Shown: positions 8,147 through 62,254, counted from the stretch's first letter. The stretch is DNA of 64,000 nucleotides from an uncultured Candidatus Saccharibacteria bacterium (GCA_964607415.1 CAZSKK010000002.1:73991-137990); one strand, 5' to 3'. Made by a program: numbers and translations. Notes: a model not told the origin generated them from the letters alone.

Positions 8147-8710
8147 TTGATGAGCAAATTTTTTAGTAAACTCAGCAAAATTCTTATATGTGCACTGTTT
8201 ATAAGTTCAGTAATAGTTTTAATACTAAGTTTTTACTTCACATTTCAAAGTGATGGTAAGTTAGTTTTTACAAAAGAAGTCCCAAAAGAAAGTGCGTTGT
8301 TAAAAAACTATGCTTATATATCTGGTCAAGTTAATAATCCTGGCGTCTATGAAATAAATTCAGCTACAAGAGTCATAGATTTGATCAATCTTGCGGCCGG
8401 TTTTACCGAAAATGCTGATCCTGATTATATTAACAACGAGTTAAATTTATCACGAAAAGTTCAAAATGAAGATCATATATTTATCAATTCAAAGATCACA
8501 AACAGTTCTCAACCCTCCAAAACAAGCAATCTTATAAATTTAAATACCGCAACAATTTCTGAACTCATGCAATTACCAGGTATTGGTGAATCTACCGGGC
8601 AAAAAATCATTGAAAATAGACCTTATTTATCTATCGAGGAGTTATTAGATGTTCCAGGCATTGGAGAATCAAAATTTAATCAAGTTAAACACTTAGTTTC
8701 GCTAGAATGA
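8147..8710 (+). CDS. comEA: Competence protein ComEA (SLBB domain plus tandem helix-hairpin-helix)
   Basis: 187 aa. N-terminal TM, then ...LNTATISELMQLPGIGESTGQKIIENRPY...LLDVPGIGESKF..., a HhH DNA-binding motif. Confidence 0.8.
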   Translation: MMSKFFSKLSKILICALFISSVIVLILSFYFTFQSDGKLVFTKEVPKESALLKNYAYISGQVNNPGVYEINSATRVIDLINLAAGFTENADPDYINNELNLSRKVQNEDHIFINSKITNSSQPSKTSNLINLNTATISELMQLPGIGESTGQKIIENRPYLSIEELLDVPGIGESKFNQVKHLVSLE

Positions 8711-10119
8711 TCACATCGTTGTTTCTAAAACTTCTTATTCTAAGAAGGTATTTTAACAATCACCTGGCCTTAAATATCTCCATGGGCTTTATTATTGGAA
8801 GCTTAATTTTTCAATATCAACCCTTTGGGCTTATTTTGTTACTCTTTTGGTGCGGAATAAACTTCAGGTTATCTCTTATATTATTGGTATTTTCAGTGGT
8901 TTTTGGTTTTTACTATTCACAAATCTATATAAAAACCATCATTTTTCAAAACAAAAGCTATACAGCTTTAGATTCTGTAGAGCTTGTTGTTGCTTCTGCG
9001 CCTGTTCAAAAAGAATTCGGCACAGAGGCAATTGTAAAACTTAAAGGTGTCAAAGGAAACGCTCTTGCTATTTTTCCAAAATATAGCAAAGTTTCTATTG
9101 GAGATAATATAAAAGCTAACATTAAGTTTTTAGAAATAAACTTTGATGATAGCTACGGTAAATTTCTAATGTCACAGAAAATTTTTAATAAACTTGAAGT
9201 TAATAGATTTGAAATCACAGACAGCAAAACTAGCCTAAGCTCTATTGGATTTAGAATAAGCAAAAAATTTACTGAAAGCTCAAGCATGTATCTAAACGAA
9301 CCATACCTATCACTATTTAATGGTATAACTATTGGTAAAGACAACTTCAGCAAAGATTATAGCCAAAAAATAACTGCTTCAGGATTATCACATATATTAG
9401 CCGTTTCTGGATTCAACCTACTTCTGAGCTTTAATATTCTTTTGCGATTATCAGGGAAATTTAATCGAAAAAAACTAACTATAACCTCATGCTTATTTAT
9501 TTTTTCATATTTACTAGTTGTAGGTTTAAATAACTTGACGGCTTTACGTGCATTTATTGTAATAGTTCTGTTTTTAATAAGCTCCATTTATGGAAGAAAG
9601 TCCACACAGCAATCTATTTTAGCTTATAGCCTTGTGCTTCTTATTCTGATTTACCCGTATTATCTATCAAATATCAGCATTCAACTTTCAATTTCAGCTG
9701 CCCTTGGGATTATTTATTTTAAAGAACCGCTTAGCAGCAGGTTGCATCATCTGATAAAAAATAGTGTTTTATTAGACCTTATAGCAACATCGCTTGCAGC
9801 CTATTTTGCGACCCTACCCGTCATCCATCTTGCATTTCAAGAAAGCTCTGTAGCAGGGCTTATTACAAATATACTTGTACTACCATTAATTCCGTTTATA
9901 ACAATCTATGGGATACTGACTGAAATTTTAAGCCTTGCAGGTATTGAGCCTCTCAACAGGTTTATGTTTATAATAATCTATCCATTTATTTATTATATAG
10001 ATCTAATAATCCATGGCAGCTTTGAACTTGGATTACCAAATCTAAAGGGTTTAGGGCTCTTGCTTCCATACTTATTACTTTTTACTTACTTAATAATAGT
10101 TAAATCTAAAAATGAATAA
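8707..10119 (+). CDS. comEC: ComEC/Rec2 DNA-uptake channel: DUF4131 and competence domains only (membrane part)
   Basis: 470 aa polytopic membrane protein with the ComEC competence-domain motif ...ASGLSHILAVSGFNL... Confidence 0.8.
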   Translation: MITSLFLKLLILRRYFNNHLALNISMGFIIGSLIFQYQPFGLILLLFWCGINFRLSLILLVFSVVFGFYYSQIYIKTIIFQNKSYTALDSVELVVASAPVQKEFGTEAIVKLKGVKGNALAIFPKYSKVSIGDNIKANIKFLEINFDDSYGKFLMSQKIFNKLEVNRFEITDSKTSLSSIGFRISKKFTESSSMYLNEPYLSLFNGITIGKDNFSKDYSQKITASGLSHILAVSGFNLLLSFNILLRLSGKFNRKKLTITSCLFIFSYLLVVGLNNLTALRAFIVIVLFLISSIYGRKSTQQSILAYSLVLLILIYPYYLSNISIQLSISAALGIIYFKEPLSSRLHHLIKNSVLLDLIATSLAAYFATLPVIHLAFQESSVAGLITNILVLPLIPFITIYGILTEILSLAGIEPLNRFMFIIIYPFIYYIDLIIHGSFELGLPNLKGLGLLLPYLLLFTYLIIVKSKNE

Positions 10120-10954
10120 AATCATAATTTTGCTATCACTAATAATTTTAAACTTAATTTATGTAAGAGATCTTGGAGCTGTGATATTCTCTGATGCTAG
10201 TCAAGTAGAGATTGTGTTTATGGATGTTGGTCAAGGTGACTCCATTTTAATTAAAGATCACAAGACAATTGGTTTAATTGATGCTGGTCCTAACAACAAT
10301 ATTAGTTACCAAATCGATAAATTCATCCCCAAAAGTCGAACAACTCTCGATTTTGCAATAGCTACGCACTTGGACAAAGATCATATTGAAGGATTTTTAA
10401 GCATTCTGGATCGGTTTAAAATAAATAAGTTTTTTATAAATACATCCTCAAAGGATAACGAGTTAATAAAAGAGTTGAAGAATAAACTCGTATTAACCAA
10501 TACTACCACTTACGAACTGTTTTCTGAAAACGACTTCGAGACAGAAAATCTTTATTTTGATGTGTTATGGCCTTTAAAAGACGCATCAGAAAAGGAAAGT
10601 AATGAAAATTCCGTAGCCATTCTTATTAAATACAACAAAATCAGCATGTTTACAGCAGGAGATCTAGGTAGAATAAATGAGATGAAGTCTCTTGAAAAAT
10701 TTTTAGATGAAGATATTGATACAAATATATTAAAGATTGGGCATCACGGAAGTAAGACATCCACTTCACAAGATTTAATCAATTTCATTGAACCAGAAGT
10801 TGCAATAATACCTGTTGGCAAAGATAATTCCTATGGACATCCAGCTTTAGATACTCTGGACCTATTGGAAGCAAACAATATAAAAGTACTGCGTACAGAT
10901 CAGCTTCATAATATTAAATTAAAAACTAATGGATTTAGCTACACAATTTTGTAA
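10112..10954 (+). CDS. comEC: ComEC metallo-beta-lactamase domain encoded as a separate overlapping ORF (split comEC)
   Basis: 280 aa with VFMDVGQGDSILI...ATHLDKDHIEGF...KIGHHGSKTS..., the MBL fold usually fused to the ComEC C-terminus. It overlaps the upstream ORF by 8 nt (ATGAATAA). Confidence 0.75.
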   Translation: MNKIIILLSLIILNLIYVRDLGAVIFSDASQVEIVFMDVGQGDSILIKDHKTIGLIDAGPNNNISYQIDKFIPKSRTTLDFAIATHLDKDHIEGFLSILDRFKINKFFINTSSKDNELIKELKNKLVLTNTTTYELFSENDFETENLYFDVLWPLKDASEKESNENSVAILIKYNKISMFTAGDLGRINEMKSLEKFLDEDIDTNILKIGHHGSKTSTSQDLINFIEPEVAIIPVGKDNSYGHPALDTLDLLEANNIKVLRTDQLHNIKLKTNGFSYTIL

Positions 10955-14194: not shown

Positions 14195-14581
14195 ATGGCA
14201 ACAAAAAAAGTAACAGAGATCGTTGATCTTATTAAAGAACTTTCAGTAGTCGAAGCTTTTGAACTAAAGAAAGCTTTAGAAGAAGAGTTCGGTGTAAGTG
14301 CAGCAGCTCCAGTTGCAATGGCAATGGCTCCAGCAGCAGGCGGTGCAGCTGAACCAGTTGAAGAAAAAACTGAGTTCAATGTTGTTCTTGCAAATGCAGG
14401 TTCAAACAAAATCGGTGTTATTAAAGTAGTTAAGAATGCAACAGGATTAGGTCTAAAAGAAGCTAAAGATCTTGTAGATGGAACTCTTCCAGTTGTTGTA
14501 AAAGAAAATGTCAAGAAAGAAGATGCTGAAACTCTAAAGAAAGAGCTTGAAGAAAACGGAGCAACAGTAGAACTTAAATAA
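14195..14581 (+). CDS. rplL: 50S ribosomal protein L7/L12
   Basis: 128 aa with an Ala/Pro-rich hinge and the conserved C-terminal domain ...[13 protein letters not shown]... Confidence 0.95.
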
Positions 14582-14654
14582 GTTATTGGGGTTGTCCCAT
14601 AAATTGGCTTATCGCTTGTAAAATTGCTTTAAGTTCATTGTATTTGTAACTCAA

Positions 14655-14705
14655 GGCAGGTTTATTATATACTGATATGTTATAATAAACCTGCCTATTT
14701 TTTTA
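14655..14705 (+). terminator. Rho-independent terminator after rplL
   Basis: Perfect 15-bp stem aggcaggtttattat...ataataaacctgcct followed by TATTTTTTTA. Confidence 0.75.
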
Positions 14706-14717
14706 CTTAAAAACATA

Positions 14718-15446
14718 ATGGATCAAATTTGGCAATTATTTTTAGACAGAGGGATTTCAGCTGAGGAATTGGAGATATTAAAGCATTCGCTTCTGCTTCT
14801 TTTAATGTTGCCTTTTGTTTCAACAGTTGTTGGAATAACAAGGCATATAATAGGAATCAGCAACATAAGTATTTATGCACCCATTGTTATAACATTTGCA
14901 CTTTATGAAATAAGTTTCGTAAGTGGACAAAATTATGTTTTTCAAGGTCTAAAATTGGGAACCATTCTGTTTTACACAGTTTTACTAACCTCCGCGCTCC
15001 TTTACTACTTTCTAATAAAGCAACTAAGGATGCACTATATTCCTAAAACAAGCTTAGTAATTACTGGAGTTAGTTTTAGTGTGGCTTTTTTATTATTCTT
15101 TAATGCTTACTTTAATAAAACAGGTTTCTTTAGTATTAATACATTTACACTTATCATGATAATTGCTTTATCCGAAGGGTTTATGTCCATTTTCCCAAAG
15201 AAAAATTTTAAGTATGCATTCATTATCAGTACTGAAACGTTTATAATTTCAGTAATTTGTTATCTTGTAATAACCTTAGAATCCTTCCAGGAAGTTTTAA
15301 AACGATATCCATATATAGTTCTTGTTACGATTTTGATAAACTTATTCGTAGGTAGGTTTACAGGCCTAAGAGTAACAGAATACTGGCGTTTTAAAGACTT
15401 ACTTCTGAAACAAGATGTCGACAATAACAACAATTCTCCAAAATAG
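14718..15446 (+). CDS. Polytopic (about 7TM) membrane protein, first gene of an ATP-grasp/protease module
   Basis: 242 aa, almost entirely hydrophobic helices. Architecture and context match the 7TM partners of alpha-L-glutamate-ligase-like ATP-grasp operons; this is inferred, not confirmed by similarity search. Confidence 0.45.
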   Translation: MDQIWQLFLDRGISAEELEILKHSLLLLLMLPFVSTVVGITRHIIGISNISIYAPIVITFALYEISFVSGQNYVFQGLKLGTILFYTVLLTSALLYYFLIKQLRMHYIPKTSLVITGVSFSVAFLLFFNAYFNKTGFFSINTFTLIMIIALSEGFMSIFPKKNFKYAFIISTETFIISVICYLVITLESFQEVLKRYPYIVLVTILINLFVGRFTGLRVTEYWRFKDLLLKQDVDNNNNSPK

Positions 15447-16851
15447 GAAAAGGGTTTTAGGTAGAAACGAGCGGTATCTAAACTTTATTAGACCTAGCAA
15501 CAAATCCCACGCTATAAAAATTGCTGACGATAAAATCCTTACAAAAAAGATTTTGAAAAAACATAATATCCCAGTAACTAAACAGCTTGGAGTAATAAAG
15601 AATAGAAGAGAATTAGAAAAATTTGATTTTGGATCTCTGCCAAAATCATTTGTAGTAAAACCAGTACGAGGTGTAAGAGGTGGTGGAGTTGAAATTTTTT
15701 ATAATAGAGACAAAGATGGCAATTGGATTAAGTCTGATGGTTCAAGGTTTACAATTGAAGATATAAAATTACTTTGCAGAGACATTCTGGATGGTAAATA
15801 TTCCTTATTCAATGAACCTGACACAGTTCTAATTGAAGAACGAATAAGAGCTCATAAGAATTTTAAATACTATGCATATAAAGGTGCCGCTGACATTAGA
15901 GTGATTGTCTACAATAAAGTCCCTGTAATGTCTTATGTCAGGCTTCCAACAAAAGAATCTCAAGGTAAAGCGAATTTAGATAAAGGGGCAATCGGCGCAG
16001 GAATTGATATGGCCGTTGGTAAAACTACTAACTCTATTATTGGAAAGTCTACAAAAATTGAATATCTACCTGAGTACAAGCTTCCTTTATCTGGTTTGAA
16101 AATTCCTTATTGGGATAGAATTTTAAGATATGCTGCAGAAGCAAGTGTGGCAACAGGGCTAGGTTTTGGTGCCATTGATTTTTTAATTGATAAAGAGCTA
16201 GGCCCGTTAATTGTTGAATTAAATGCAAGGCCAGGGCTTTCAATTCAACTCGCAAATGATGATGGGTTAAGATGGAGACTTAAAAAAACTGGAGACATTA
16301 AAGTTAATAAAATTGAAAAAGGTGTACGATTAGCAAAAGATTTATTTGGAGGTGAAATTGAAGAAGAAATTGAAGAAATCTCTGGTAAGCAGGTTATTGG
16401 GCTTATTGAAAACGTTAATATTTACGGTAAAGAAGAGAAATCTGAACTGGTGAAGGCTAAAATTGATACAGGAGCTACAATTTCTTCAATTGATGTGGAA
16501 CTTGCAAAAGAACTTGGTTTTAAAGAAGCAATCGAATATGCTCAAAGTATTTTAAGTGAAATCCCTCAAACATTTTCCTCAATTCACGAAGCAAAAGAGT
16601 ACGCAACTAAACACAACTTAAACGAAAGGCTTGAACAGCATCCAGATATTCAAAAAACTGCTATTGTCAAAGCGAGTAACGGAATTACTTATAGAATTCA
16701 GCTTCCAATGAAGCTTGAAATTTCAGACTTTCAGATAGATACTTATATTAATGTTGCAGATAGAAGCAACTTGCTTTATAAAGTCATTATAGGAAAAAGG
16801 GATCTTAAGAAATTTTTAATTGACCCTGCTAAAAGATTGAAGCTCAAATGA
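15415..16851 (+). CDS. ATP-grasp ligase (alpha-L-glutamate-ligase/RimK-related) fused to a C-terminal retropepsin-like aspartic protease domain
   Basis: 478 aa. N-terminal half carries ATP-grasp motifs (...FVVKPVRGVRGGGV..., ...GAIDFLIDKELGPLIVELNARPGLS...). C-terminal roughly 140 aa contain ...KAKIDTGATISSID..., a DTGA catalytic motif typical of the DUF785/retropepsin-like family that partners RimK. Confidence 0.6.
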   Translation: MSTITTILQNRKRVLGRNERYLNFIRPSNKSHAIKIADDKILTKKILKKHNIPVTKQLGVIKNRRELEKFDFGSLPKSFVVKPVRGVRGGGVEIFYNRDKDGNWIKSDGSRFTIEDIKLLCRDILDGKYSLFNEPDTVLIEERIRAHKNFKYYAYKGAADIRVIVYNKVPVMSYVRLPTKESQGKANLDKGAIGAGIDMAVGKTTNSIIGKSTKIEYLPEYKLPLSGLKIPYWDRILRYAAEASVATGLGFGAIDFLIDKELGPLIVELNARPGLSIQLANDDGLRWRLKKTGDIKVNKIEKGVRLAKDLFGGEIEEEIEEISGKQVIGLIENVNIYGKEEKSELVKAKIDTGATISSIDVELAKELGFKEAIEYAQSILSEIPQTFSSIHEAKEYATKHNLNERLEQHPDIQKTAIVKASNGITYRIQLPMKLEISDFQIDTYINVADRSNLLYKVIIGKRDLKKFLIDPAKRLKLK

Positions 16852-17774
16852 AAGCTCAAATAGCATTATTTTCTGAAACGGATGATAACAACTATACTGT
16901 TGAGCGCTTTAAAACTGAGGCAGACAATTTGGGCTTGGAATTGGACCACTTAAGATACTCTGATATCAACTTCTTCTTTAAAAAAGGTGAGTTAAGAGCA
17001 TGGAGAGAAAATAGTAAAGATAAAGAAATCACCAATTACTACGATTACTTTATTTTTAGATGTACTAAAGATAAACATGGGAATAATTATAAACAAACAG
17101 CGGAAGTCATTAAAAGATTTGCTTTTGATAAAGGCAAAAGAATTCTTAATTTTACAGAAGAATCCAGAAATGTTTTTGGTAATACACCCAAAGTTGAAAC
17201 TTATAGAATTCTTTCTCAAAATAAAATACCAATAATTCAAAGTTTTATTTTCCCAAATGTAGTTTGTTTAAAGAAAAGTTTACCTGGCTTTAAATTCCCT
17301 TTAATTATAAAGAAAGTTAACGAAAGCCATGGGCGAGGGATAAAACTAGTACGCTCCGAGAAAGACCTGCTAAATTTTTTCGAGAAGCATACAAAAGTAT
17401 ATGAATTCCTCATACAAGAATACATTCAATCTAACTCTACTAACAAAGAGGACATTCGGATCATAACAATAGGAAAAAAGGTTTTGGGAGCTTATAAAAA
17501 AGTAGCACCTAGAGATTCTATTATCACTAACATTGCAAGCGGAGGCAATGCCGTTCCCATAGAATTAACTTCTGATATTATTACACTTGGTGAACAAGTA
17601 GCCGAGGCCATGAAGTTTGAATTTATGGGCATAGATGCTATTTATAACCAGGATGGAGAACTTTTAGTATTAGAAGTAAATCGAGCGCCACAGTTTGAAG
17701 GATTTGAAAAAGTAACTGGGAAAAATATACCAAAAGAAGTGTTACACCACATGCTAGACTCTACCCCCGCTTAA
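16848..17774 (+). CDS. RimK-like ATP-grasp (ribosomal protein S6 / alpha-L-glutamate ligase family)
   Basis: 308 aa with ...PLIIKKVNESHGRGIKLV..., ...IQEYIQ..., ...EDIRIITIGKKVLGAYKKV... and ...GIDAIYNQDGELLVLEVNRAPQFEG..., the RimK fold. Confidence 0.7.
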   Translation: MKAQIALFSETDDNNYTVERFKTEADNLGLELDHLRYSDINFFFKKGELRAWRENSKDKEITNYYDYFIFRCTKDKHGNNYKQTAEVIKRFAFDKGKRILNFTEESRNVFGNTPKVETYRILSQNKIPIIQSFIFPNVVCLKKSLPGFKFPLIIKKVNESHGRGIKLVRSEKDLLNFFEKHTKVYEFLIQEYIQSNSTNKEDIRIITIGKKVLGAYKKVAPRDSIITNIASGGNAVPIELTSDIITLGEQVAEAMKFEFMGIDAIYNQDGELLVLEVNRAPQFEGFEKVTGKNIPKEVLHHMLDSTPA

Positions 17775-27515: not shown

Positions 27516-28757
27516 CTATTCCTCTTCCTTTACATCTTCAAGAATCGCATCCAATCCCTCCATTTCTCTCGAGCTTTCTTCTACTTTTTCTGTGTCTTCT
27601 GATTCTGTTGCTTTTGATTTGGTTTTAGCAGCAAGCCTCTTTAAGCTCAAGCCTAAATGCCTGTCTTCATTTGAAATAGAAATAATCATAACCTTAACTT
27701 TATCTCCAATGTTTACTATTTGTGAAGGATCTTTAACAAGTTTGTTTGAAAGCTCAGAAATATGAATTAATCCGTTTAATCCTTCTTCGATTCTTACGAA
27801 TGCTCCATAATCTGCAAGACTTTTGATTTCTCCTTCAACAATTTGTCCAATCTTATACTTCTTAACAATGTTCTGCCATGGATCTTGAATAAGTCTTTTG
27901 ATACTGTAAGCAACTTTCTTACCGTTATCCATTAATCCAATTAATTGTACAGTAACTTTATCTCCAACTTTGAAAAGATCTGCTGGATTTGAAACTTTGT
28001 CCCATGAGATTTCTGACAAATGAACCAGTCCTTCAAGCCCTTTAGCATTTACGAATAGACCAAATGGTGCAATTCCTGTTACAACCCCATCTAATTTGTC
28101 TCCAACTTTCAAATTTTCTAAAGTTTCTTTTCTTTGATTAACATCTGTATCAGAATATGCATATCGTTCAGAAAGAATTACTCTATTTTTCTGTTTTTCA
28201 ATTTCCATTACTTTAACTTGAAGCTCCTCGCCAATCATTTCTGCCAATTTACCTTGAAGTTGTTTTGTAGCATCTTCTTTACTATTGTATGAACCTCCAG
28301 AATAAATTCTGCTATTTTTTAATTGAGAGCTTGGAACAAATCCTCTTAAGCCACCTCCTATTTCTACAATAACTCCCCCAGTATTAGCTTCAATTACTTT
28401 AACAGTAATTGCGGAATCATTTTTCTTAGCTTCATCAAGCTCATGCCATTTAAGCGCTACACCTGTCCTTCTGATTGAAAGTTCTATTAAACCTTCTTCA
28501 TTTTCAGGTTTTACTACAAAAGCGATAACTTTATCGCCAATTTTTTTTGCGATTTTTTCACCATCAAATCTAAGTTCTTTTCCTGAAATAACACCTTCTG
28601 CTCTACCTTCAACGTCAACTATAAGTTCTCCTGGTTTTACAGCGACAACACTACCCTCAATAATTTGACCTTTTTTGTATGTTTTTGGGAATTTGATTCC
28701 TTCAAGGAGTTTATCCATTTCACTGGATGATTTTGCTGCAAGAGTTTTTTTTGCCAT
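27516..28757 (-). CDS. rpsA: 30S ribosomal protein S1 (short, about 4 S1 domains)
   Basis: 413 aa with repeated S1 OB-fold motifs (...GQIIEGSVVAV..., ...GDKVTVQLIGL...) and an acidic C-terminus. Confidence 0.85.
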   Translation of the reverse strand: MAKKTLAAKSSSEMDKLLEGIKFPKTYKKGQIIEGSVVAVKPGELIVDVEGRAEGVISGKELRFDGEKIAKKIGDKVIAFVVKPENEEGLIELSIRRTGVALKWHELDEAKKNDSAITVKVIEANTGGVIVEIGGGLRGFVPSSQLKNSRIYSGGSYNSKEDATKQLQGKLAEMIGEELQVKVMEIEKQKNRVILSERYAYSDTDVNQRKETLENLKVGDKLDGVVTGIAPFGLFVNAKGLEGLVHLSEISWDKVSNPADLFKVGDKVTVQLIGLMDNGKKVAYSIKRLIQDPWQNIVKKYKIGQIVEGEIKSLADYGAFVRIEEGLNGLIHISELSNKLVKDPSQIVNIGDKVKVMIISISNEDRHLGLSLKRLAAKTKSKATESEDTEKVEESSREMEGLDAILEDVKEEE

Positions 28758-29042: not shown

Positions 29043-29158
29043 AACCGGCGACTACCTATTTTCCCAGGACCCTTCGGACCAAGTATCTTCGGCTCAACTC
29101 TGTTTCACTTCTGAGTTCGAGATGGATCAGGTGGTTCCAGAGCGATACCGTCACCGGA
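29043..29158 (-). rRNA. rrf: 5S ribosomal RNA
   Basis: Minus strand TCCGGTGACGGTATCGCTCTGGAACCACCTGATCCATCTCGAACTCAGAAGTGAAACAGAGTTGAGCCGAAGATACTTGGTCCGAAGGGTCCTGGGAAAATAGGTAGTCGCCGG. Conserved helix I pairing and the CCGAACTCAGAAGTGAAAC core. Confidence 0.85.
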
Positions 29159-29354
29159 CAAATGCGTTTTACGTTTTGCATAAAGCGTTGTATGTATTAG
29201 CGCATTTGTCTGATGACAAGTACAATAAATTTTAAAAGATCACATCACGTTTAACATCATACTTCTAACGTTAAACGCTTATGAACTCTAAAAACTGAAT
29301 AGAAAAAAGTACTCCGAGCATTTGATATAAATACCAAGAAATGATTAAAAAATT

Positions 29355-32395
<3,041 letters not shown>

Positions 32396-32576
32396 ATTTT
32401 TTAATCAATTATATACCCGGTGTACTTTTTCTATTCAGTTGTTAAAGATCAAATACCACTTCCGTGGACGAAATCCGAAAATCGAATTCCGAAATTTATA
32501 TTACTTTATTTTAATACAAGATTTCGAATTTCGAATTTATATTTAGAATTTGCAATTTTGTTTATAAAATTGTTTT

Positions 32577-32649
32577 TGGAGCCTAAGGGATTCGAACCCT
32601 TGACCTCCTCATTGCAAATGAGGCGCTCTACCAACTAAGCTAAGGCCCC
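32577..32649 (-). tRNA. tRNA-Ala (anticodon TGC) in the 16S-23S spacer
   Basis: Minus strand GGGGCCTTAGCTTAGTTGGTAGAGCGCCTCA-TTTGCAA-TGAGGAGGTCAAGGGTTCGAATCCCTTAGGCTCCA, with the G3:U70 identity pair. Confidence 0.85.
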
Positions 32650-32673
32650 AAGCACTCCGTGCTAAGAATAACT

Positions 32674-32750
32674 TGGTAGGCGATCCAAGACTCGAACTTG
32701 GGACCTTTCCCTTATCAGAGGAACGCTCTAACCACCTGAGCTAATCGCCT
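32674..32750 (-). tRNA. tRNA-Ile (anticodon GAT) in the 16S-23S spacer, CCA encoded
   Basis: Minus strand AGGCGATTAGCTCAGGTGGTTAGAGCGTTCCT-CTGATAA-GGGAAAGGTCCCAAGTTCGAGTCTTGGATCGCCTACCA. Confidence 0.85.
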
Positions 32751-32928
32751 GTGATAGCGGTATAGCTCATAGTGCTTAGCTTTTAGCTAGAAACTACTTG
32801 CTATATGCTAGCAGCTAATTAAATCCTTAAAAGTGATAAGAATTCACCGTCTTTTGTTTCAACTTGAATCATGGGTTGGAAATCTGTATCCAAAACGTTA
32901 TTCGTTTTATTTGGAATAAAGCTCCTTA

Positions 32929-34446
<1,518 letters not shown>

Positions 34447-34863
34447 AAACTAAAAAAGTCCGAAGACTAGATTAGCTTGAAAAAATTTGATTATGTTCTT
34501 TTGAAAAAAGAACTAAAACTTTTTTGAGAATATTTAGATCCAAGCGAATTTACAAAAGAATTGTCGGTGATTCTTATCACTGTTAAAGTTTCAATGTGCT
34601 TCCCCTGCTGGTTTTTGACCAAGCAAACAGAACAAAAGATGCTTAAAAATTTAAGCACCTAATAATTCGGAAAATATTTTAGAGGAACCATAATCACTGC
34701 TTCCTGTGGTTAGGATTAGCAATGGACTGGTAAGAATTTTATCAAAGAAAAAAACAATTAGCAAGCAGGAAAAACCAGAATTTTTCAAATAACAATTTAA
34801 AGAATTTTCAAAAGGCTTTGCAGTTACAAATTGAAAATTTTTATAACTGTAAATTGTTAATTT

Positions 34864-42478: not shown

Positions 42479-42552
42479 TACCAAGGGAGGGGATCGAACC
42501 CTCGACCTCAGGTTTATGAATCCTGTGCTCTAGCCAACTGAGCTACCTTGGT
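42479..42552 (-). tRNA. tRNA with CAT anticodon (elongator Met, or Ile2 if lysidinylated)
   Basis: Minus strand ACCAAGGTAGCTCAGTTGGCTAGAGCA-CAGGA-TTCATAA-ACCTG-AGGTC-GAGGGTTCGATCCCCTC-CCTTGGTA. A1:U72 pair, so not an initiator. Confidence 0.7.
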
Positions 42553-42600: not shown

Positions 42601-42863
42601 ATATGCCAAGCATTTTGGCAGTTCGGAACTCTTTCCCTAAAATACCAGATGATTGATATAAAGTGCTTTTGTATTTTAACACGAGACAACACCATGTGTT
42701 GCCGAGAATAAAACTTTTATTTATTTAGAAACGGTCCCACTAACATGCGGGACCGTAGAGACATTATACGGGTTACTGGAAAAATTGTCTACGAGTTATG
42801 CTGGGGAAAGAGTTGAAGTTCAAGTACCAAGCTATTGTTATTTACTTAAACTATTGCTTTATT

Positions 42864-42935
<72 letters not shown>

Positions 42936-42966
42936 ATATTTTGTGCAAACAATGATAACACTTATT

Positions 42967-44402: not shown

Positions 44403-44472
44403 TTGCCTTGCCGAAATGCATGGCATGCAGGCAGGTAGCACGGGTTCTTTAAAGAAGTTAGGTATTAAAAAT

Positions 44473-44546
44473 AGACCTGTAGCTCAGTTGGTTAGAGCAC
44501 GGTTCTTATAAAGCCGGGGTCCGTGGTTCGAGTCCACGCAGGTCTA
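44473..44546 (+). tRNA. tRNA-Ile (anticodon TAT; AUA-decoding)
   Basis: AGACCTG-TA-GCTC-AGTTGGTTA-GAGC-A-CGGTT-CTTATAA-AGCCG-GGGTC-CGTGG-TTCGAGT-CCACG-CAGGTCT-A. All stems pair and the anticodon is UAU. Confidence 0.6.
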
Positions 44547-44594
44547 TTTTTAATATCTTTACTTTAGAATTAAAGCTCGGGAACTCATTCGACA

Positions 44595-44650: not shown

Positions 44651-47092
44651 TTAGAATCCAAATGAAGGCATTCCGAAAGGATTTGATTTTTCTTTCTCCT
44701 CTTCTTTTATAAATGTACCTCTTAGCTTAACTTCATTTTCAATAATATTTCTATCCTTGCCGTATTTGAGTCTTGAAATCTGTTTAATTATATCTGAAAG
44801 CTCTGGATTTGGTGATGTAATCATACCAAATGGAGATTGATCATACATTGAAGTAATGGAGAATGGTGGTGTTGGCTTACCATCCACAAGCATTTTTATA
44901 AATGCATTTCTGTTTTCTACTTGAATTAAATCATTTCTCGTAAATGCCCCTTCAAACTCCTTTTCTAAAAATTCTGCATCATCAACCCCAACTCTGAATA
45001 CAGCCTTATTACCAACGTTTCCAAAAATAGCATCTCTAATTTTTGTATCCCCTCCAGTTCTTGTCAGCTGTCCTATAAACTGATGGCCTATCGTTAAAGA
45101 TAATTTGTACTTTCTAGCTTCCGACAAAATAATCATAATTCCATCAGTCAAGAAGTTTTGGAACTCATCTATGTACAAAAAGAACGGTTTTCTTTGACTT
45201 TCAGAAACACTTTCACGGCCAAGACCTGCAACCAGTAACTTACCTATTAAAATCATACCCAATAGATTTGCATTGAAGTCTCCAATTTTACCCTTTGAAA
45301 GCTTAGCCAAAAGAATTTTCCCATCATCCATAATATTTCTGAAATTTACTGTAGAATTTTGTTGAGCCACTATTGGTCTTACATAGGCATTTGACAAGAA
45401 ACTTGCAAGTTTTGAAGTAATGTATGGCGTCATATTCTTAAGTGATGCTTCTCCTCCTGCTTTTTCAGCCTGTTTTTTCCAGAAGTCAATAACTTCCTGG
45501 TCATCACACTTGGAAAGTTTATAAGCTCTATAGCCATCATCTGCAAAAATTTTAGGTATTTCTAGAAGTGTTGAGCCCGATTCTTTATCGGCGGTTAAAA
45601 GTAAGATTCCGTATCTCATATACTGCTCAAAAATAGGACCTCCAGTTTTTTTCAAATCGTATAGTGTATCAAAAATATTTAGCATTTCGTTAATTACAAG
45701 AGTTTTTTCTGCTTCAGTGTTGAATTCGAGCATGTTCAGGCCAATTGGTCTTTCAAGATCCGCTGGGTCAAAAACAACAACATCTTCGACTCTCTCTGGT
45801 GGTATTTGTTCCATTATCCTTTCTACATCAGTACCATGTGGGTCAATATAGGCACACCCATGCCCCATTTTTATATCCCTGATCATCATGCTGCTCATAA
45901 AATATGATTTACCAGAACCTGTCTGCCCAATAATGTACATATGCCTCAACCTATCATCAGGCTTAATAAAGATTTCCTTGGTTTTTCCTCTAAAAATGTT
46001 TCTCCCCATATACATGTAATCCTGTTGATATGCAGTTGTTACAAAATCCGCAGCTGGCATTTTGCTAGATAAAAGCCATTGTATGTGGGGAGTTGTTATT
46101 AGCTTGTTAGGGAAATGAAAAAGTGTCGCAAGCTCCGATGAGTTTAAAATCATAGACTCCCTTGGCAATCTGTACACAAAATCCTTTGTTATTTTCTTTA
46201 ATTTCTTTTTATCGACTTTCTTAAATCTATTGCCCCCTTCTTTTGTAAACTGATCAAAAGTACTAAGAATATTAGAAAGATGAGTGTTTGCTGACCCTTC
46301 CATATCGGAAACCACCACTACGCGCACGTCTGTTTGAAACCCAGATTTGCTTGCTTTCACATCGATCATTTCAAGAGTGTCTTCATTCACCTTGACCTTA
46401 CCCTTGTTATCGGGGTCACTCATCTTTTCTTTTATTTTTCTGATATAGTCTTTTGAATCATTTCGCCAGCTTGACCCTGCCGGGGTTATTACAACCTGAT
46501 ATGCGGCAGCTTCGTTTGATTGAAGCTTACTGAAAGCATCTAAAAGTGTAGCAAGAGGATCTACAGGAAGCTCTTCGTAATTTCTGACCGGTAATCTTGA
46601 TTCTTTATCTAATGTAAGTGCAGCAAAAGCAACAGATGCATCATCAGGGAATAAATTGTACTCTTTTACTCTATTAATTTCTGCCTCAGGATAATTACCA
46701 TTAATTTGCCTATCAACAAGATTCGCAATTTTTTCAGGGCAAACCACAAAAAACCTTATATTATCTTTGAACGCAACAATTTCAAAACTTACGAAAGTTT
46801 GGGCATCTAAATATTTTTGAAGTCTTTTTAATTTCTTCCCGATTCCAGTTAATCCTGTAAACATTTGGTCGGCAGCCTTAATCTCAATTTCATTATCTTG
46901 TGGTAATTTAACTTCAAAGTAAGCAAGGCCCAAAGATTTTTTCAAAGAAGACTTTTCTTTTATATTCTTTAGAAACTCCTTAAAAAGTCTTATTGCTAAA
47001 ATTGATATACCTGCAAGTACGACAACAACAGCTAGGATTGTTATCAAAAAACTTGCTATTGCATTTGTATCTACTGAAGGAGCATCGATCAT
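44651..47092 (-). CDS. Membrane-anchored FtsK/HerA-superfamily ATPase of type-IV-secretion type (VirD4/TraG-like, or a VirB3-VirB4-like fusion)
   Basis: 813 aa. N-terminal TM, Walker A IIGQTGSGKSY followed by IDPHGTD, Walker B FFLYIDEFQNF, then ...EARKYKLSLTIGHQFIGQL...AIFGNVGNKAVFRV..., the DEF/R-K-Y-G/HQ..QL motif series of conjugative coupling/transfer ATPases. Confidence 0.6.
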   Translation of the reverse strand: MIDAPSVDTNAIASFLITILAVVVVLAGISILAIRLFKEFLKNIKEKSSLKKSLGLAYFEVKLPQDNEIEIKAADQMFTGLTGIGKKLKRLQKYLDAQTFVSFEIVAFKDNIRFFVVCPEKIANLVDRQINGNYPEAEINRVKEYNLFPDDASVAFAALTLDKESRLPVRNYEELPVDPLATLLDAFSKLQSNEAAAYQVVITPAGSSWRNDSKDYIRKIKEKMSDPDNKGKVKVNEDTLEMIDVKASKSGFQTDVRVVVVSDMEGSANTHLSNILSTFDQFTKEGGNRFKKVDKKKLKKITKDFVYRLPRESMILNSSELATLFHFPNKLITTPHIQWLLSSKMPAADFVTTAYQQDYMYMGRNIFRGKTKEIFIKPDDRLRHMYIIGQTGSGKSYFMSSMMIRDIKMGHGCAYIDPHGTDVERIMEQIPPERVEDVVVFDPADLERPIGLNMLEFNTEAEKTLVINEMLNIFDTLYDLKKTGGPIFEQYMRYGILLLTADKESGSTLLEIPKIFADDGYRAYKLSKCDDQEVIDFWKKQAEKAGGEASLKNMTPYITSKLASFLSNAYVRPIVAQQNSTVNFRNIMDDGKILLAKLSKGKIGDFNANLLGMILIGKLLVAGLGRESVSESQRKPFFLYIDEFQNFLTDGIMIILSEARKYKLSLTIGHQFIGQLTRTGGDTKIRDAIFGNVGNKAVFRVGVDDAEFLEKEFEGAFTRNDLIQVENRNAFIKMLVDGKPTPPFSITSMYDQSPFGMITSPNPELSDIIKQISRLKYGKDRNIIENEVKLRGTFIKEEEKEKSNPFGMPSFGF

Positions 47093-48225: not shown

Positions 48226-50712
48226 TTAAAAATCTAATCTGATAACCTTCGTTCCATCTAATACATATATCTTTCTTGAAGCTTCATTAATTACTACTTC
48301 TTCAAGGCTAGAGAACATGTTTTCAGACCCTTTGTAAACAAACTGCTTAACAAATTTCATAGACTTCTGTTCGTTATCTTGAATCTCAAATAATAAGACC
48401 CTTTTATTTTTACCATCAGCAACAACCATAAAATTCTCAGACACATCAAAACTGGTAGCAGAATTCATTGCAGTATAATCTGAGCTAACAAGACCACTAA
48501 AGGTGTCTTGGGTAATAGTATTATCGCCTCCCCCAAGGTATCTTCTAATACCTTTTCCTGAAATCAAAACGTATATTTCGTAAGGTGTTGCAATATCTAT
48601 AGCATTCGCAAGTTCAGGATCTGTTTTCCAATTAGGTGGATTTGTTGCGACATACAGAACACCTCCGCCAACAAACTCATTACCATTCCTATCTCTTTTG
48701 AAAATTTGTTGATGATTTTGATGAATTTCGTAAATTGCTTGGTTGCCTTCAAATACTGAGGCTTCAACAACTTTTCCAATAATTGCCTGAGCCGTACCAT
48801 TAATTCGAGTAAGCGAGTTCGATTGACCTTCTTTAAACCTACCTACTGATGCCGTTTGATCATTATCAAAAACTAGAATATCATTTGAAGGCTCCCTCAC
48901 TAGGAACATTGGTTGGCTTAAGCCTGTAATGTGTTCTTGTGCAGTTGAACCTAAATTTACACCTGTTTTGTATACAACATTTCTGGTTTTATCAGATATG
49001 AATAGGTTACCGTTAGAATATTCTAGATCCGAAAGACTTGCATTAGGAAATACTTTTCCAACATCAACAATTATCTGAGGTTCGGTAATACCATCAACTA
49101 AAAGTAGCTCATCTTTTTCTGTGCCTACCCGTCCGATTATCGTATCTAGCCTATCAGTAAATAAATCTTCTTTCTTTTGAGTTTCAGCACTAGATGCTAG
49201 ATTATTCAAACTTGCAAGAACAAGATTTTTTCTTTGTTCACCTTCATTTTTAGCAGTATCAACTTGTTGAGAAAGACTTTGCAATTGAAGTTCTAAGTTG
49301 GAAACTGCATTTTCAGCTTCATTAACTCTCCTCTTTTCTGCCCTATCACTTTGAGCTTTCCTGATACCAAAAAATAAAACTATAACTAAAATTACGGTTA
49401 CAATAATTAATAATCTTCTATTTCTTTTTAACTTGGAGCCTCGCAAATAGATATCTCTTCTATCACCCGTTCCTACAATTTGGGTCTTAAAAAAAGAGTA
49501 AATCTTGTTTGCTACTAAAGATATTTTGGCAGAAATGATGTTAATAATATGTGCATAAGTTTTCTTGTTATTTTTGAAATGAGCTTTTACTTTTCCATTC
49601 CAAACACCAGAGACCCCGGACGCGGCCTTCTTTGAAAAAATTTCAATTTTACCTGTAGATTCGCGTCCATATACATTATCTTCCAACAACGCTTCATCAT
49701 TTTCATACAAATCTTCCTTTTTGGACATTCTTGGAAGATCATCATCATATTCAAATTCATCATCATCTTCTTCTTCACGGTTTCTGAAGCTTTTGGCTTT
49801 ATCGATAAGGTTAGATGATTTTATTTTTACAGTAGCTTTTAAAGTTCGTAACTTTGAAGTCCATTTGGATTTCAGCGAAATATCCTGAGCATCCTCATCT
49901 ACTTCTAATGCCTCTTCATCTTCAATTACATCTAGTTGTTCTGCATCATTTTTGTCTATTTCAACTGAAGAATGATCAAAACTGTTTGCAATATTTTTTT
50001 CTAAATCATCGTCGTGTTCTATGTCATCGCTTCTTACATCTTCGAGCTCTTGTACAAAAGGCATTTCCCATGACTGCTCTTCATCGCCAATCATTAAAAA
50101 CGCCCATCCGATCTTTGCTTTAATTTCATCCAGCGAGATCAAATTTTTATCATTCATTACTTTTTCAACAAGACTACTTCCGTCTTGCGCCACTTTTGAA
50201 GTTGCCAATGCAACAAGATCTGTTGATTCCAATTCTAGGCTTCCACTTTTCATAAAGCCGCTTTGCGCAGCATCAATCAAAACTTTTGATATTTCAATTG
50301 TTTTTTCACCACGCTTTACGTAAATCTTACTTTCTCCAATTACCAGTGCATACATAATATTTCCTACTATAACGCACACCGCCATTTCTAAATCTAATCC
50401 TTCTTTCAAAATATCTTCCTCTCGAGATAAGACAAAGTCCATTTTAGACTTCATTGACCAAACAGCATTTTCAAGCCTAGCAAGAATCTCGCTTTCCTCT
50501 GAAGAATCATAGTAAGCATTTTGAAGCTCATCAACCATTATTTTAGCAACAGGCTCTACATTTACGTCTTTGGCTGTTGTTTTTAAACGTGTTACAGCAA
50601 AAATGTCCCCAAGTCTTTCATGGATTTCAAGCTCCTTAGGGATATAACCGTAAATGCCAGCCCAGTCATAACCCAGTAATTTTCCAAATGTAAATTCAGT
50701 TCGTAAGTTCAT
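48226..50712 (-). CDS. Large bitopic membrane protein with an N-terminal cytoplasmic domain, acidic linker, TM, coiled coil and a C-terminal beta-propeller-like extracytoplasmic domain
   Basis: 828 aa. Has a DE-rich stretch (...EDEEALEVDEDAQD..., ...EEEDDDEFEYDDD...), the TM LLIIVTVILVIVLFFGI, a coiled coil (...NLELQLQSLSQQVDTAKNEGEQ...), and then beta-rich repeats. Confidence 0.4.
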   Translation of the reverse strand: MNLRTEFTFGKLLGYDWAGIYGYIPKELEIHERLGDIFAVTRLKTTAKDVNVEPVAKIMVDELQNAYYDSSEESEILARLENAVWSMKSKMDFVLSREEDILKEGLDLEMAVCVIVGNIMYALVIGESKIYVKRGEKTIEISKVLIDAAQSGFMKSGSLELESTDLVALATSKVAQDGSSLVEKVMNDKNLISLDEIKAKIGWAFLMIGDEEQSWEMPFVQELEDVRSDDIEHDDDLEKNIANSFDHSSVEIDKNDAEQLDVIEDEEALEVDEDAQDISLKSKWTSKLRTLKATVKIKSSNLIDKAKSFRNREEEDDDEFEYDDDLPRMSKKEDLYENDEALLEDNVYGRESTGKIEIFSKKAASGVSGVWNGKVKAHFKNNKKTYAHIINIISAKISLVANKIYSFFKTQIVGTGDRRDIYLRGSKLKRNRRLLIIVTVILVIVLFFGIRKAQSDRAEKRRVNEAENAVSNLELQLQSLSQQVDTAKNEGEQRKNLVLASLNNLASSAETQKKEDLFTDRLDTIIGRVGTEKDELLLVDGITEPQIIVDVGKVFPNASLSDLEYSNGNLFISDKTRNVVYKTGVNLGSTAQEHITGLSQPMFLVREPSNDILVFDNDQTASVGRFKEGQSNSLTRINGTAQAIIGKVVEASVFEGNQAIYEIHQNHQQIFKRDRNGNEFVGGGVLYVATNPPNWKTDPELANAIDIATPYEIYVLISGKGIRRYLGGGDNTITQDTFSGLVSSDYTAMNSATSFDVSENFMVVADGKNKRVLLFEIQDNEQKSMKFVKQFVYKGSENMFSSLEEVVINEASRKIYVLDGTKVIRLDF

Positions 50713-61854: not shown

Positions 61855-61873
61855 ATATTAAGCATATTCTACT

Positions 61874-62254
61874 TACTTCTCCTTAAGGAGAAGTCGATTT
61901 TGCCTTTGTGCAAAATCGGATGAGGTTTTTAAATTAACTCTTAAAGATATTGTATATGAAGTAGCGAAAGAGGAAAAGAGCAAATTAGGTACAAGATTTA
62001 GAGGTAAAGAGCAAAAGAGCTAAACAGGTTAGAGGTATGAGGTTAGTGGTTAGAGGAATAGAGCAAGAGAGGCTTGAGGTAAAGGGCGAAAGAGGTAGAG
62101 AGGTGAAAAGGTTTAGAGCAATAGAGAGCAAATGGTTGGATTTCCTCTCCCTCTGGGAGAGGACTTAGGTGAGGGTGTGATCAGAAAGCTTTAGGCTCAC
62201 CTCACCCGTACTCACTGCGTTCGTACGACCTCTCCTCAAAAGGAGAGGAAATTA
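61874..62254. repeat. Second locus of the multi-hairpin element family, split by a ~210-bp GAGG-rich degenerate tandem-repeat tract
   Basis: 61874-61930 reads cttctcc-ttaag-gagaag / tcgattttgc-N-gcaaaatcga / tgagg. 62141-62254 reads cctctcc-ctctgg-gagagg ... ggtgagg...cctcacc ... cctctcc-tcaaaa-ggagagg-aaatta. Compare 35298-35392. The intervening 61931-62140 holds about 15 GAGG/AGAGG motifs. Confidence 0.55.

Follow-up and report, generated by a model that had tools for sequence, protein, structure and literature searches.

The sequence considered here is a window of 64 kb, meaning the whole stretch of DNA that was analyzed, from an ultra-small candidate-phylum bacterium deposited as an uncultured Candidatus Saccharibacteria bacterium (GCA_964607415.1, CAZSKK010000002.1:73991-137990). 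The closest protein relatives of the window are named Candidatus Dojkabacteria or WS6 (Patescibacteria/Candidate Phyla Radiation, CPR). At positions 14718-17774, on the plus strand, lies a module of three genes, g1 to g3, encoding a seven-transmembrane (7TM) protein, an ATP-grasp ligase fused to a retropepsin-like aspartic peptidase, and a ligase of the RimK family. A three-gene, same-strand module with these domains had been proposed in an earlier note made from the sequence alone, and both parts of the proposal held. The open reading frames (ORFs) have exactly the boundaries that it gave, and Pfam, NCBIfam and fold searches agree on a 7TM_transglut protein, an ATP-grasp domain fused to a PF05618 (DUF785) retropepsin and a RimK-family ligase. 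The genes and the parts of g2 are as follows.

14718-15446, plus strand: g1, 7TM_transglut protein, 242 amino acids
15415-16851, plus strand: g2, ATP-grasp/retropepsin fusion, 478 amino acids (from the ORF list, Pfam and NCBIfam)
15445-16293, plus strand: ATP-grasp domain of g2, residues 11-293, probably of RloC/TIGR02291/ATPgrasp_ST type
16339-16401, plus strand: near-invariant acidic linker of g2, DLFGGEIEEEIEEISGKQVIG, joining the ligase domain to the protease domain (residues 309-329)
16381-16836, plus strand: retropepsin-like aspartic peptidase domain of g2, residues 323-474, with the catalytic D351-T-G at 16465-16473
16848-17774, plus strand: g3, RimK-family alpha-L-amino-acid ligase, 308 amino acids

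The likeness that the earlier note saw to triads of ligase, 7TM protein and DUF785 protease reflects homology, as the module is homologous to the triad that is now named rloABC (PMC12239564). In Pseudomonas aeruginosa, the rloABC operon encodes a secreted retropepsin (RloA), an inactive transglutaminase joined to a 7TM domain (RloB) and an ATP-grasp protein (RloC) (Lormand et al., mBio 2025, PMC12239564). Residues 11-293 of g2 match PF14397 well above its cutoff (E-value 4.5e-60), and the best NCBIfam match of g2 is TIGR02291. Going by the model description, TIGR02291 is presumably the family of Pseudomonas RloC. In the alignment of 26 homologs on which residue invariance in g2 was judged, there is no variation at K82, the G86/G89/G91 loop, E141, D255, E268 or R272, and at least 90% of sequences have N270; these are presumably the ATP- and Mg-binding positions of ATP-grasp enzymes. 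When an AlphaFold model of full-length g2 (predicted local distance difference test, pLDDT, 82) was searched with Foldseek, only ATP-grasp matches were returned, with cyanophycin synthetase at the top, followed by RimK, ArgX/LysX and Ddl; the C-terminal domain was modeled separately. The ligase does not belong to the TTL family (PF03133, E-value only 0.0085), and it scores 12 bits against the RimK equivalog NF007764 (cutoff 331). Neither a signal peptide nor a transmembrane segment was detected in g2, and the protein is therefore predicted to be cytoplasmic.

The C-terminal domain of g2 contains KIDTGATISSID at residues 349-360 and combines a DTG motif with a single-lobe beta-barrel in the predicted fold, as is seen in clan AA. 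Residues 323-474 match PF05618 (E-value 1.4e-7), the former ‘Zn_protease’ or DUF785 family that is now described as RimB-like, as well as the models for RloA1-3, with an E-value of 2e-8 for RloA3. The domain is closer to these RloA models than to RimB, whose model NF052261 gives 14.9 bits against a cutoff of 200. Single-sequence searches of PDB yielded an E-value of only ~0.1 for the protease domain and no match for full-length g2, and a profile of the 26-sequence family found the RloA crystal structures 9g58 and 9g59 (E-values 7e-7 and 3e-6). The separate model of the domain (pLDDT 94.5) had RloA2 (9g59), RloA (9g58) and Lpg0085 as its best Foldseek matches, followed by Ddi1 and the HTLV and HIV proteases. 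In addition, K349, D351, R427 and R450 are invariant in the 26 homologs and align with K46, D48, R114 and R137 of RloA at equal spacing (D+66 and D+89 in the 9g58 chain). In RloA, K46, R114 and R137 bind polyglutamate beside the catalytic D48, and the substitutions R114A and R137A caused the strongest loss of polyglutamate cleavage in vitro and did not complement the mutant (PMC12239564).

The membrane protein g1 matches PF14402 7TM_transglut (E-value 7e-15). Its alignment to the NCBIfam RloB model is confined to positions 313-506 of 508, the C-terminal 7TM part, with 42.9 bits against a cutoff of 900, and by this comparison the transglutaminase part is absent both from g1 (242 amino acids) and from its relatives of 224-247 amino acids. 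Hydropathy indicates seven transmembrane segments, and the positive-inside rule predicts an N terminus outside and a C terminus inside the cell. The best-conserved element of the protein is this cytoplasmic tail, N208..G212..G216-L-R218-x-x-E221-Y-x-R224-F225, at 95-100% in 77 homologs.

A scan for relatives, in which each GTDB species was represented by a single genome, gave at least 551 loci that encode one, and full-length homologs of g2 with 54-98% identity fall into more than 120 protein clusters. All counts out of 80 given below refer, at the species level, to the best 80 of these at least 551 loci; individual loci are denoted by L numbers where they have to be told apart. Every one of the 80 carries the full fusion, so that a fusion which the earlier note regarded as unusual is no rarity in its lineage. 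Another kind of ligase-retropepsin hybrid, RimBK, is already published (PMC11957791). Those of the 80 loci with informative titles are named as Dojkabacteria/WS6, Moranbacteria, Parcubacteria, Doudnabacteria or Patescibacteria group; among the remainder, many labels are generic or doubtful (Saccharibacteria, Bdellovibrionales, Gammaproteobacteria, one Bathyarchaeia and one Fimivivens). Irrespective of the wider context, the fusion is immediately preceded by the 7TM gene in 76 of the 80.

The third gene is less constant. As a protein, g3 passes the RimK-family model TIGR00768 (148.2 bits, cutoff 143.4) and matches PF08443 (E-value 4.6e-29), and its best sequence matches in PDB are ArgX, Pseudomonas RimK and LysX (E-values 1e-15 to 1e-10). 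Against the RimK equivalog NF007764 (S6--L-glutamate ligase) it reaches 55 bits where the cutoff is 331, so it is not a RimK orthologue, and its partial scores for MptN (106 bits), CofF (74 bits) and LysX (111 bits) are all far below the equivalog cutoffs. An ATP-grasp paralog directly follows the fusion in 49 of the 80 loci, with the RimK-like PF08443 in five of the five sampled, and no RimK-like gene was found at the L003/L031, L007 and L087 loci. Judged from gene content, the core of the module is the 7TM protein and the fusion, with the RimK-like gene as an accessory or optional component.

Within the window, g1 and g2 overlap by 32 nucleotides, an overlap seen again in L003, and g2 and g3 by 4 nucleotides (ATGA). 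These overlaps point to an operon, as does the pairing of the fusion with the 7TM gene in 76 of the 80 loci. A Shine-Dalgarno sequence is not evident ahead of g1, g2 or g3. At its 3′ end, g3 overlaps the convergent mreB by 14 nucleotides, and beyond mreB lie a PEGA-domain gene and ndk. The guanine-cytosine (GC) content is ~33% throughout the window, and the base composition of the module is that of its flanks. The module had been described as inserted, a word that misleads in view of this flank-like composition and of an arrangement that is conserved across the class. Upstream of the module are the following features.

Ending at 14581, plus strand: block of tRNA-Trp, secE, nusG, rplK, rplA, rplJ and rplL in canonical order
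14195-14581, plus strand: rplL (L7/L12), given for context only (from the ORF list and from a Pfam Ribosomal_L12 match of the identical L001 gene)
14654-14704, plus strand: intrinsic-terminator-like element after rplL, a 43-nucleotide hairpin at 14654-14696 followed by A and T7

A strong terminator after rplL, as the earlier note had it, is supported by folding, with -22.8 kcal/mol for the hairpin alone ahead of the T7 run, and the 136-nucleotide spacer between rplL and g1 folds better than 200 of 200 shuffles (z = -3.68). A simple consensus terminator scan missed this hairpin, which was found by direct folding of the region. The first base of g1 comes 13 bases past the T-run, and in most Dojkabacteria loci that were checked rplL is likewise followed by a hairpin with a T-run. 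The 3′ arm of the hairpin in the window contains, at positions 14678-14686 and ~30 nucleotides upstream of the g1 ATG, a perfect extended -10 element (TGTTATAAT). A transcript beginning just past TGTTATAAT would be without the 5′ arm of the hairpin and would thus escape termination; in DNA of 33% GC, the match could be due to chance.

The position after rplL is shared by 24 of the 80 loci, all of them closer relatives (ATP-grasp identity 58-70%; Dojkabacteria), and in 21 of those 24 the distance between rplL and the 7TM gene is at most 500 nucleotides. There is no rplL upstream in 45 loci (Moranbacteria, Parcubacteria and Doudnabacteria) whose upstream sequence is long enough, yet the pair of 7TM gene and fusion is kept there. 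In many loci without rplL (L033-L086, from Moranbacteria, Parcubacteria and others), the pair is preceded by YebC-like and RuvC-like genes; on its downstream side it is adjoined by at least one RimK-like ligase, with a PBP1A-like gene of ~850 amino acids further on. These names were read from cluster sequences. Because of the terminator-like hairpin after rplL and the 45 more distant loci without that gene, we regard the module as probably independent of the ribosomal operon, and it is predicted to be a transcription unit of its own. The site after rplL appears to be an old inherited synteny rather than a functional link to the ribosome, and the proximity looks coincidental. What the earlier note took for an unusual and meaningful position beside ribosomal-protein genes is better described as synteny within a lineage.

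The neighborhood of rplKAJL is what would be explained if the module modified the ribosome, with glutamates being added to the C terminus of a ribosomal protein (S6, or a neighbor such as L7/L12 or S1) and trimmed by the fused retropepsin. RimK and RimB are a cytoplasmic pair that adds and trims glutamates on ribosomal protein S6, and RimB cleaves polyglutamate and stimulates synthesis by RimK (PMC11957791). The place of g3 in the RimK family, a protease that is cytoplasmic like RimB, the existence of RimB-RimK hybrids, the 24 loci with rplL and an S1-like protein in the window that ends in KEEE all speak for such a role. We nevertheless find it very doubtful, as adjacency to rplL is limited to closer relatives and lacking in the 45 distant loci, a terminator-like hairpin separates rplL from the module, and the constant partner of the fusion is a membrane protein rather than a ribosomal one. 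The hint in the earlier note at S6 glutamylation fares no better, with g3 at 55 bits where the RimK equivalog demands 331 and with the gene missing from L003/L031, L007 and L087. Furthermore, L12 ends in VELK, the tail of S1 is not conserved (EENK in L003), and rpsF is not in the window.

The genes rpoB and rpoC, which the earlier note reported to be absent from the window, were indeed not found there. None of the six window ORFs of 808-871 amino acids, nor the ORFs of 505, 586 and 600 amino acids, is an RNA polymerase subunit, and neither the window, read in all six frames, nor any of 86 loci contains the RpoB/RpoC signature motifs (NADFDGD and G[RK]HGNKG). By these motifs, no locus has either gene at a distance of up to 8-10 kb from the module. 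On this distribution, rpoBC would be relocated elsewhere across the whole lineage. Faulty contig assembly, a frameshift or a wrong gene call could in principle create both a false fusion and a false junction with rplL, and the earlier note had named rpoBC immediately outside the window on a misassembled contig as a finding that would refute it. We give an artefact next to no probability, and it is already refuted by independent data. The identical locus, including the junction of rplL with the 7TM gene, was assembled independently from SRR22443709, and a second run, SRR7051042, contains an identical g2-g3-mreB-PEGA-ndk stretch. In addition, three genomes, 0.86-1.14 Mb in size, and 21 other species show the same gene order, and the full-length fusion occurs in the more than 120 clusters and in 80 of the 80 loci examined.

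With moderate confidence, we interpret the module as a compact, all-cytoplasmic Patescibacterial variant of Rlo, namely a membrane-docked ligase for chains of the poly-alpha-glutamate type with a built-in trimming peptidase. At the expense of ATP, the ATP-grasp domain of g2 would join acidic residues (most likely glutamate) in alpha linkage either to an acceptor, possibly one related to the cell envelope, or to free glutamate. The fusion would dock on the cytoplasmic face of g1, probably via the near-invariant GLRxxEYxRF tail. The fused retropepsin would dimerize through ligase oligomers and cleave polyglutamate-type chains, either limiting their length or releasing them; that it may trim what the ligase makes is suggested by analogy with RimB for RimK and RloA for RloBC. 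Where present, g3 would serve as an optional second ligase that separates initiation from elongation or adds a second residue. With the periplasmic transglutaminase domain gone and the protease no longer secreted, the module looks like a monoderm-adapted form of Rlo and would fit a cell without a periplasm, as CPR cells are assumed to be.

RloA enzymes cleave stretches of at least eight glutamates. In P. aeruginosa that has lost all three RloA paralogs, hypo-osmotic conditions are lethal, biofilm and cell shape are defective, and the cells are sensitive to cell-wall antibiotics (beta-lactams) (PMC12239564). Deletion of rloB or rloC in the triple rloA mutant suppresses the osmotic defect fully and the others partly (PMC12239564). 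The downstream neighbors of the module in Dojkabacteria are mreB and the PEGA-domain gene, and the loci without rplL have the PBP1A-like gene, so that genes for the cell wall or cell shape adjoin the module in both lineages; this echoes the Rlo phenotypes and may be synteny only. Together, the phenotypes and these lineage-specific neighbors weakly suggest a role in the cell envelope. MreB itself was considered as the target and rejected as unsupported, as it ends in ...KRSVKRG and its adjacency is specific to a lineage.

Several observations weigh against reading the module as an Rlo variant that makes and trims polyglutamate. The match of g2 to TIGR02291 (E-value 1.4e-71, 241 bits) is below the cutoff of 314, and the retropepsin scores are far below the equivalog cutoffs, so the specificity of g2 could differ from that of Rlo. 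Template modeling scores of the domain model to RloA are only ~0.5-0.6, and a helical insert of ~50 amino acids follows the DTG loop. This insert presumably sits about where the flap of other retropepsins lies, and the substrate channel in g2 may be remodeled. A search for an acceptor found no precursor peptide or other small ORF in the module or in the 136-nucleotide gap upstream of g1, and rpsF is not in the window or the fetched loci. When window ORFs of at least 50 amino acids were flagged for an acidic C terminus, a single protein was returned, which is also the only one with EE at its end; its tail, EEE, is not conserved. This protein is S1-like, 413 amino acids long and encoded at window positions 27516-28757 on the minus strand; it ends in ...EDVKEEE, its homolog in L003 ends in ...LLEENK, and the S1-like assignment is based on conserved position and on resemblance to the L003 gene that Pfam annotates as S1.

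The partial scores of g3 for MptN, CofF and LysX (106, 74 and 111 bits) and the top Foldseek match of g2, cyanophycin synthetase, bring up the alternative that the module makes a soluble small molecule, cofactor or storage polymer, either by joining glutamates to a metabolite in the manner of MptN and CofF or by building a cyanophycin-like polymer, with the 7TM protein merely a co-located transporter. It is also in keeping with this that RimK can make free poly-alpha-glutamate (PMC11957791). None of the MptN, CofF and LysX scores comes near its equivalog cutoff, however; the ligase is fused to an endopeptidase domain whose conserved residues would bind a peptide substrate, and the strict pairing with the 7TM gene together with the translational overlap suggests a complex. 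CPR bacteria with genomes of ~1 Mb are, moreover, not known to produce methanopterin, F420, or lysine via LysW, which counts against such a product. Soluble synthesis is, in our judgment, quite unlikely.

The linker between the two domains of g2 raises a further possibility, that of a self-processing polyprotein. Among the 26 homologs, the positions of the 21-residue linker DLFGGEIEEEIExxSGKxVIG are invariant or at least 90% conserved, and residues 313-329 are predicted to be flexible or disordered (pLDDT <50), with a DSSP helix at 314-323. The linker is lacking in stand-alone RloC-like proteins and decays in distant fusions. If the retropepsin were to cut within GGEIEEEIEE, in cis or in trans, a free protease and a ligase with a glutamate tail would result, in the manner of Gag-Pol. 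Near-invariance in a segment predicted to be disordered, the absence from stand-alone proteins, and the ability of RimB and RloA to cleave within internal polyglutamate stretches are consistent with such a cut, as is a linker acidity that is higher where the D(T/S)G motif is intact (mean 3.7 vs 2.4 acidic residues of 8, n = 46 vs 30, Mann-Whitney p = 8e-4). This correlation is confounded by phylogeny, however, and several distant fusions with an intact DTG have non-acidic linkers. Ile residues spaced i/i+4 and the DSSP helix also fit a plain amphipathic helix, and RloA requires at least eight consecutive glutamates and is blocked by bulky substitutions (PMC12239564), where the linker has Ile at two positions. 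Self-processing therefore seems distinctly improbable to us; it would be an addition to the Rlo-variant model rather than a strict rival, and the linker might alternatively act as an autoinhibitory pseudosubstrate.

The best comparative evidence we found that the system may build and trim glutamyl-type chains comes from an exchange of its peptidase. An exhaustive representative search showed the same ligase to be fused also to several other modules. In the commonest long form, of ~780-816 amino acids, a degenerate retropepsin-like region (DTS, DPG, NTT and others) is followed by a MATCAP domain (PF08014, E-values down to 5e-39), and the HExxxH motif is kept in 46 of 51 long fusions of 740-930 amino acids. 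At L087, in a sister Dojkabacterium, the order is secE-nusG-rplKAJL-7TM-fusion-mreB-PEGA without a RimK gene. The fusion there (P0122, L087:4794-7864) joins an ATP-grasp domain to a degenerate retropepsin (DTS) and a MATCAP domain (PF08014, E-value 5e-39) with HExxxH and EEG motifs, an architecture shared by ~46 representative clusters. MATCAP/TMCP enzymes are eukaryotic carboxypeptidases with HExxxH and EEG motifs that cleave C-terminal Tyr or Glu off acidic tubulin tails and deglutamylate them (PMC10499314). Since two unrelated peptidases whose relatives act on Glu-rich tails are joined to one ligase at one locus, a glutamyl-tail chemistry is suggested. The swap shows MATCAP-family enzymes paired with ATP-grasp ligases in bacteria, and a search of the available literature returned no paper that mentions MATCAP/DUF1704 together with ATP-grasp.

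A broader and more tentative reading follows from this exchange. The module might be a reversible system for adding and removing C-terminal glutamate at the CPR membrane, in which a ligase and its antagonist peptidase sit on the 7TM protein, the target belongs to the envelope or to cell shape, and the peptidase is interchangeable (a retropepsin in the window, a MATCAP/TMCP type in L087). The module would then stand as a prokaryotic counterpart to the eukaryotic tubulin-tail cycle, to which it might even be related. We think this unlikely; a sub-variant of it would include retrovirus-like self-cleavage at the near-invariant acidic linker.

Both the triad and ligase-retropepsin fusions are, in themselves, known from publications and domain databases, and what is new is the compact, all-cytoplasmic variant. 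This variant separates a core (7TM protein, ligase and acid-tail peptidase) from Gram-negative additions (the transglutaminase domain and secretion). As Rlo affects osmotic tolerance, biofilm, beta-lactam sensitivity and cell shape in Pseudomonas, the module could help to find the Rlo product, and a soluble polypeptide that unites ligase with protease, partnered by a small 7TM protein, would be convenient for reconstitution and structural work. That the module is widespread in bacteria with genomes of ~1 Mb suggests that its function matters.

Other features of the window lie apart from the module. ComEC appears to be split into two overlapping genes at 8707-10954 on the plus strand, one with the Competence/DUF4131 part and one with the metallo-beta-lactamase part, and the same split occurs in related genomes. 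A complete rRNA operon (16S, tRNA-Ile, tRNA-Ala, 23S and 5S) is encoded at 29043-34448 on the minus strand, where the 23S match covers 3060 nucleotides of sequence against a model of 2925 positions and may hold an insertion of ~135 nucleotides. A tRNA-Ile with the anticodon UAU is found at 44472-44547 on the plus strand, near two genes of tRNA-Met(CAU) type at 42479-42552 and 42863-42936; in most bacteria AUA is read by a lysidine-modified CAU tRNA, and a UAU tRNA-Ile is uncommon. The Rfam model for the small RNA whalefall-1 matches 61873-61927 on the plus strand with 39.6 bits (gathering score 37). A HerA/DUF87-like ATPase (44651-47092, minus strand) and a homolog of TrwB/TraG-type coupling proteins (62406-63923, minus strand) suggest a type IV secretion or DNA-transfer apparatus. 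Finally, an ORF of 828 amino acids at 48226-50712 on the minus strand has no Pfam match and holds an EEEDDDE run.

Among known systems, the eukaryotic tubulin-tail cycle (TTL/TTLL against MATCAP/TMCP and CCP; PMC10499314) offers an analogy that is functional only. There, too, an ATP-grasp enzyme adds to acidic C-terminal tails from which a peptidase removes residues, and L087 and the long fusions join the ligase of the module to a MATCAP-family domain. The window protein, in contrast, has a retropepsin instead of MATCAP, its ligase is not TTL, no tubulin-like substrate is known, and the neighboring MreB is without an acidic tail.

With the Rim system, the module shares a cytoplasmic ATP-grasp ligase accompanied by a cytoplasmic retropepsin-like peptidase, and g3 belongs to the RimK family. 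It differs in its constant 7TM partner and in the scores of g3 and of the peptidase, which are far below the RimK and RimB cutoffs (55 vs 331 and 14.9 vs 200). No link of the module to S6 was found either, an E. coli S6 query having returned no rpsF from the window or the fetched loci. The RimBK hybrid of Desulfotalea psychrophila has its protease at the N terminus and RimK at the C terminus, and the protease half is active (PMC11957791). Like g2 it is a single ligase-protease polypeptide, whereas in g2 the order is reversed (ligase at residues 11-293, peptidase at 323-474) and the ligase is of the RloC/ATPgrasp_ST type and not RimK. Since both the domain order and the ligase subfamily differ, g2 is likely an independent fusion.

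The comparison with Rlo shows both the departures and the closest correspondence. The protease of g2 is fused to the C terminus of the ligase, is without a signal peptide and is predicted to be cytoplasmic, whereas RloA bears a signal peptide and is periplasmic; fused in this way behind a cytoplasmic ligase, the peptidase would share the compartment of the ligase, as in Rim and unlike in Rlo. In addition, g1 is without the transglutaminase domain, there is often a further ligase of the RimK family, the module retropepsin has the ~50-residue helical insert, and the hosts of the module are Patescibacteria, where RloB has been reported to be 96% proteobacterial (PMC12239564). These differences are set against the same three protein families in one predicted operon, a membrane protein that corresponds to the 7TM part of RloB, and a peptidase that is closest to RloA/RloA2 in both profile and fold and that keeps the catalytic Asp along with the polyglutamate-binding Lys and Arg residues.

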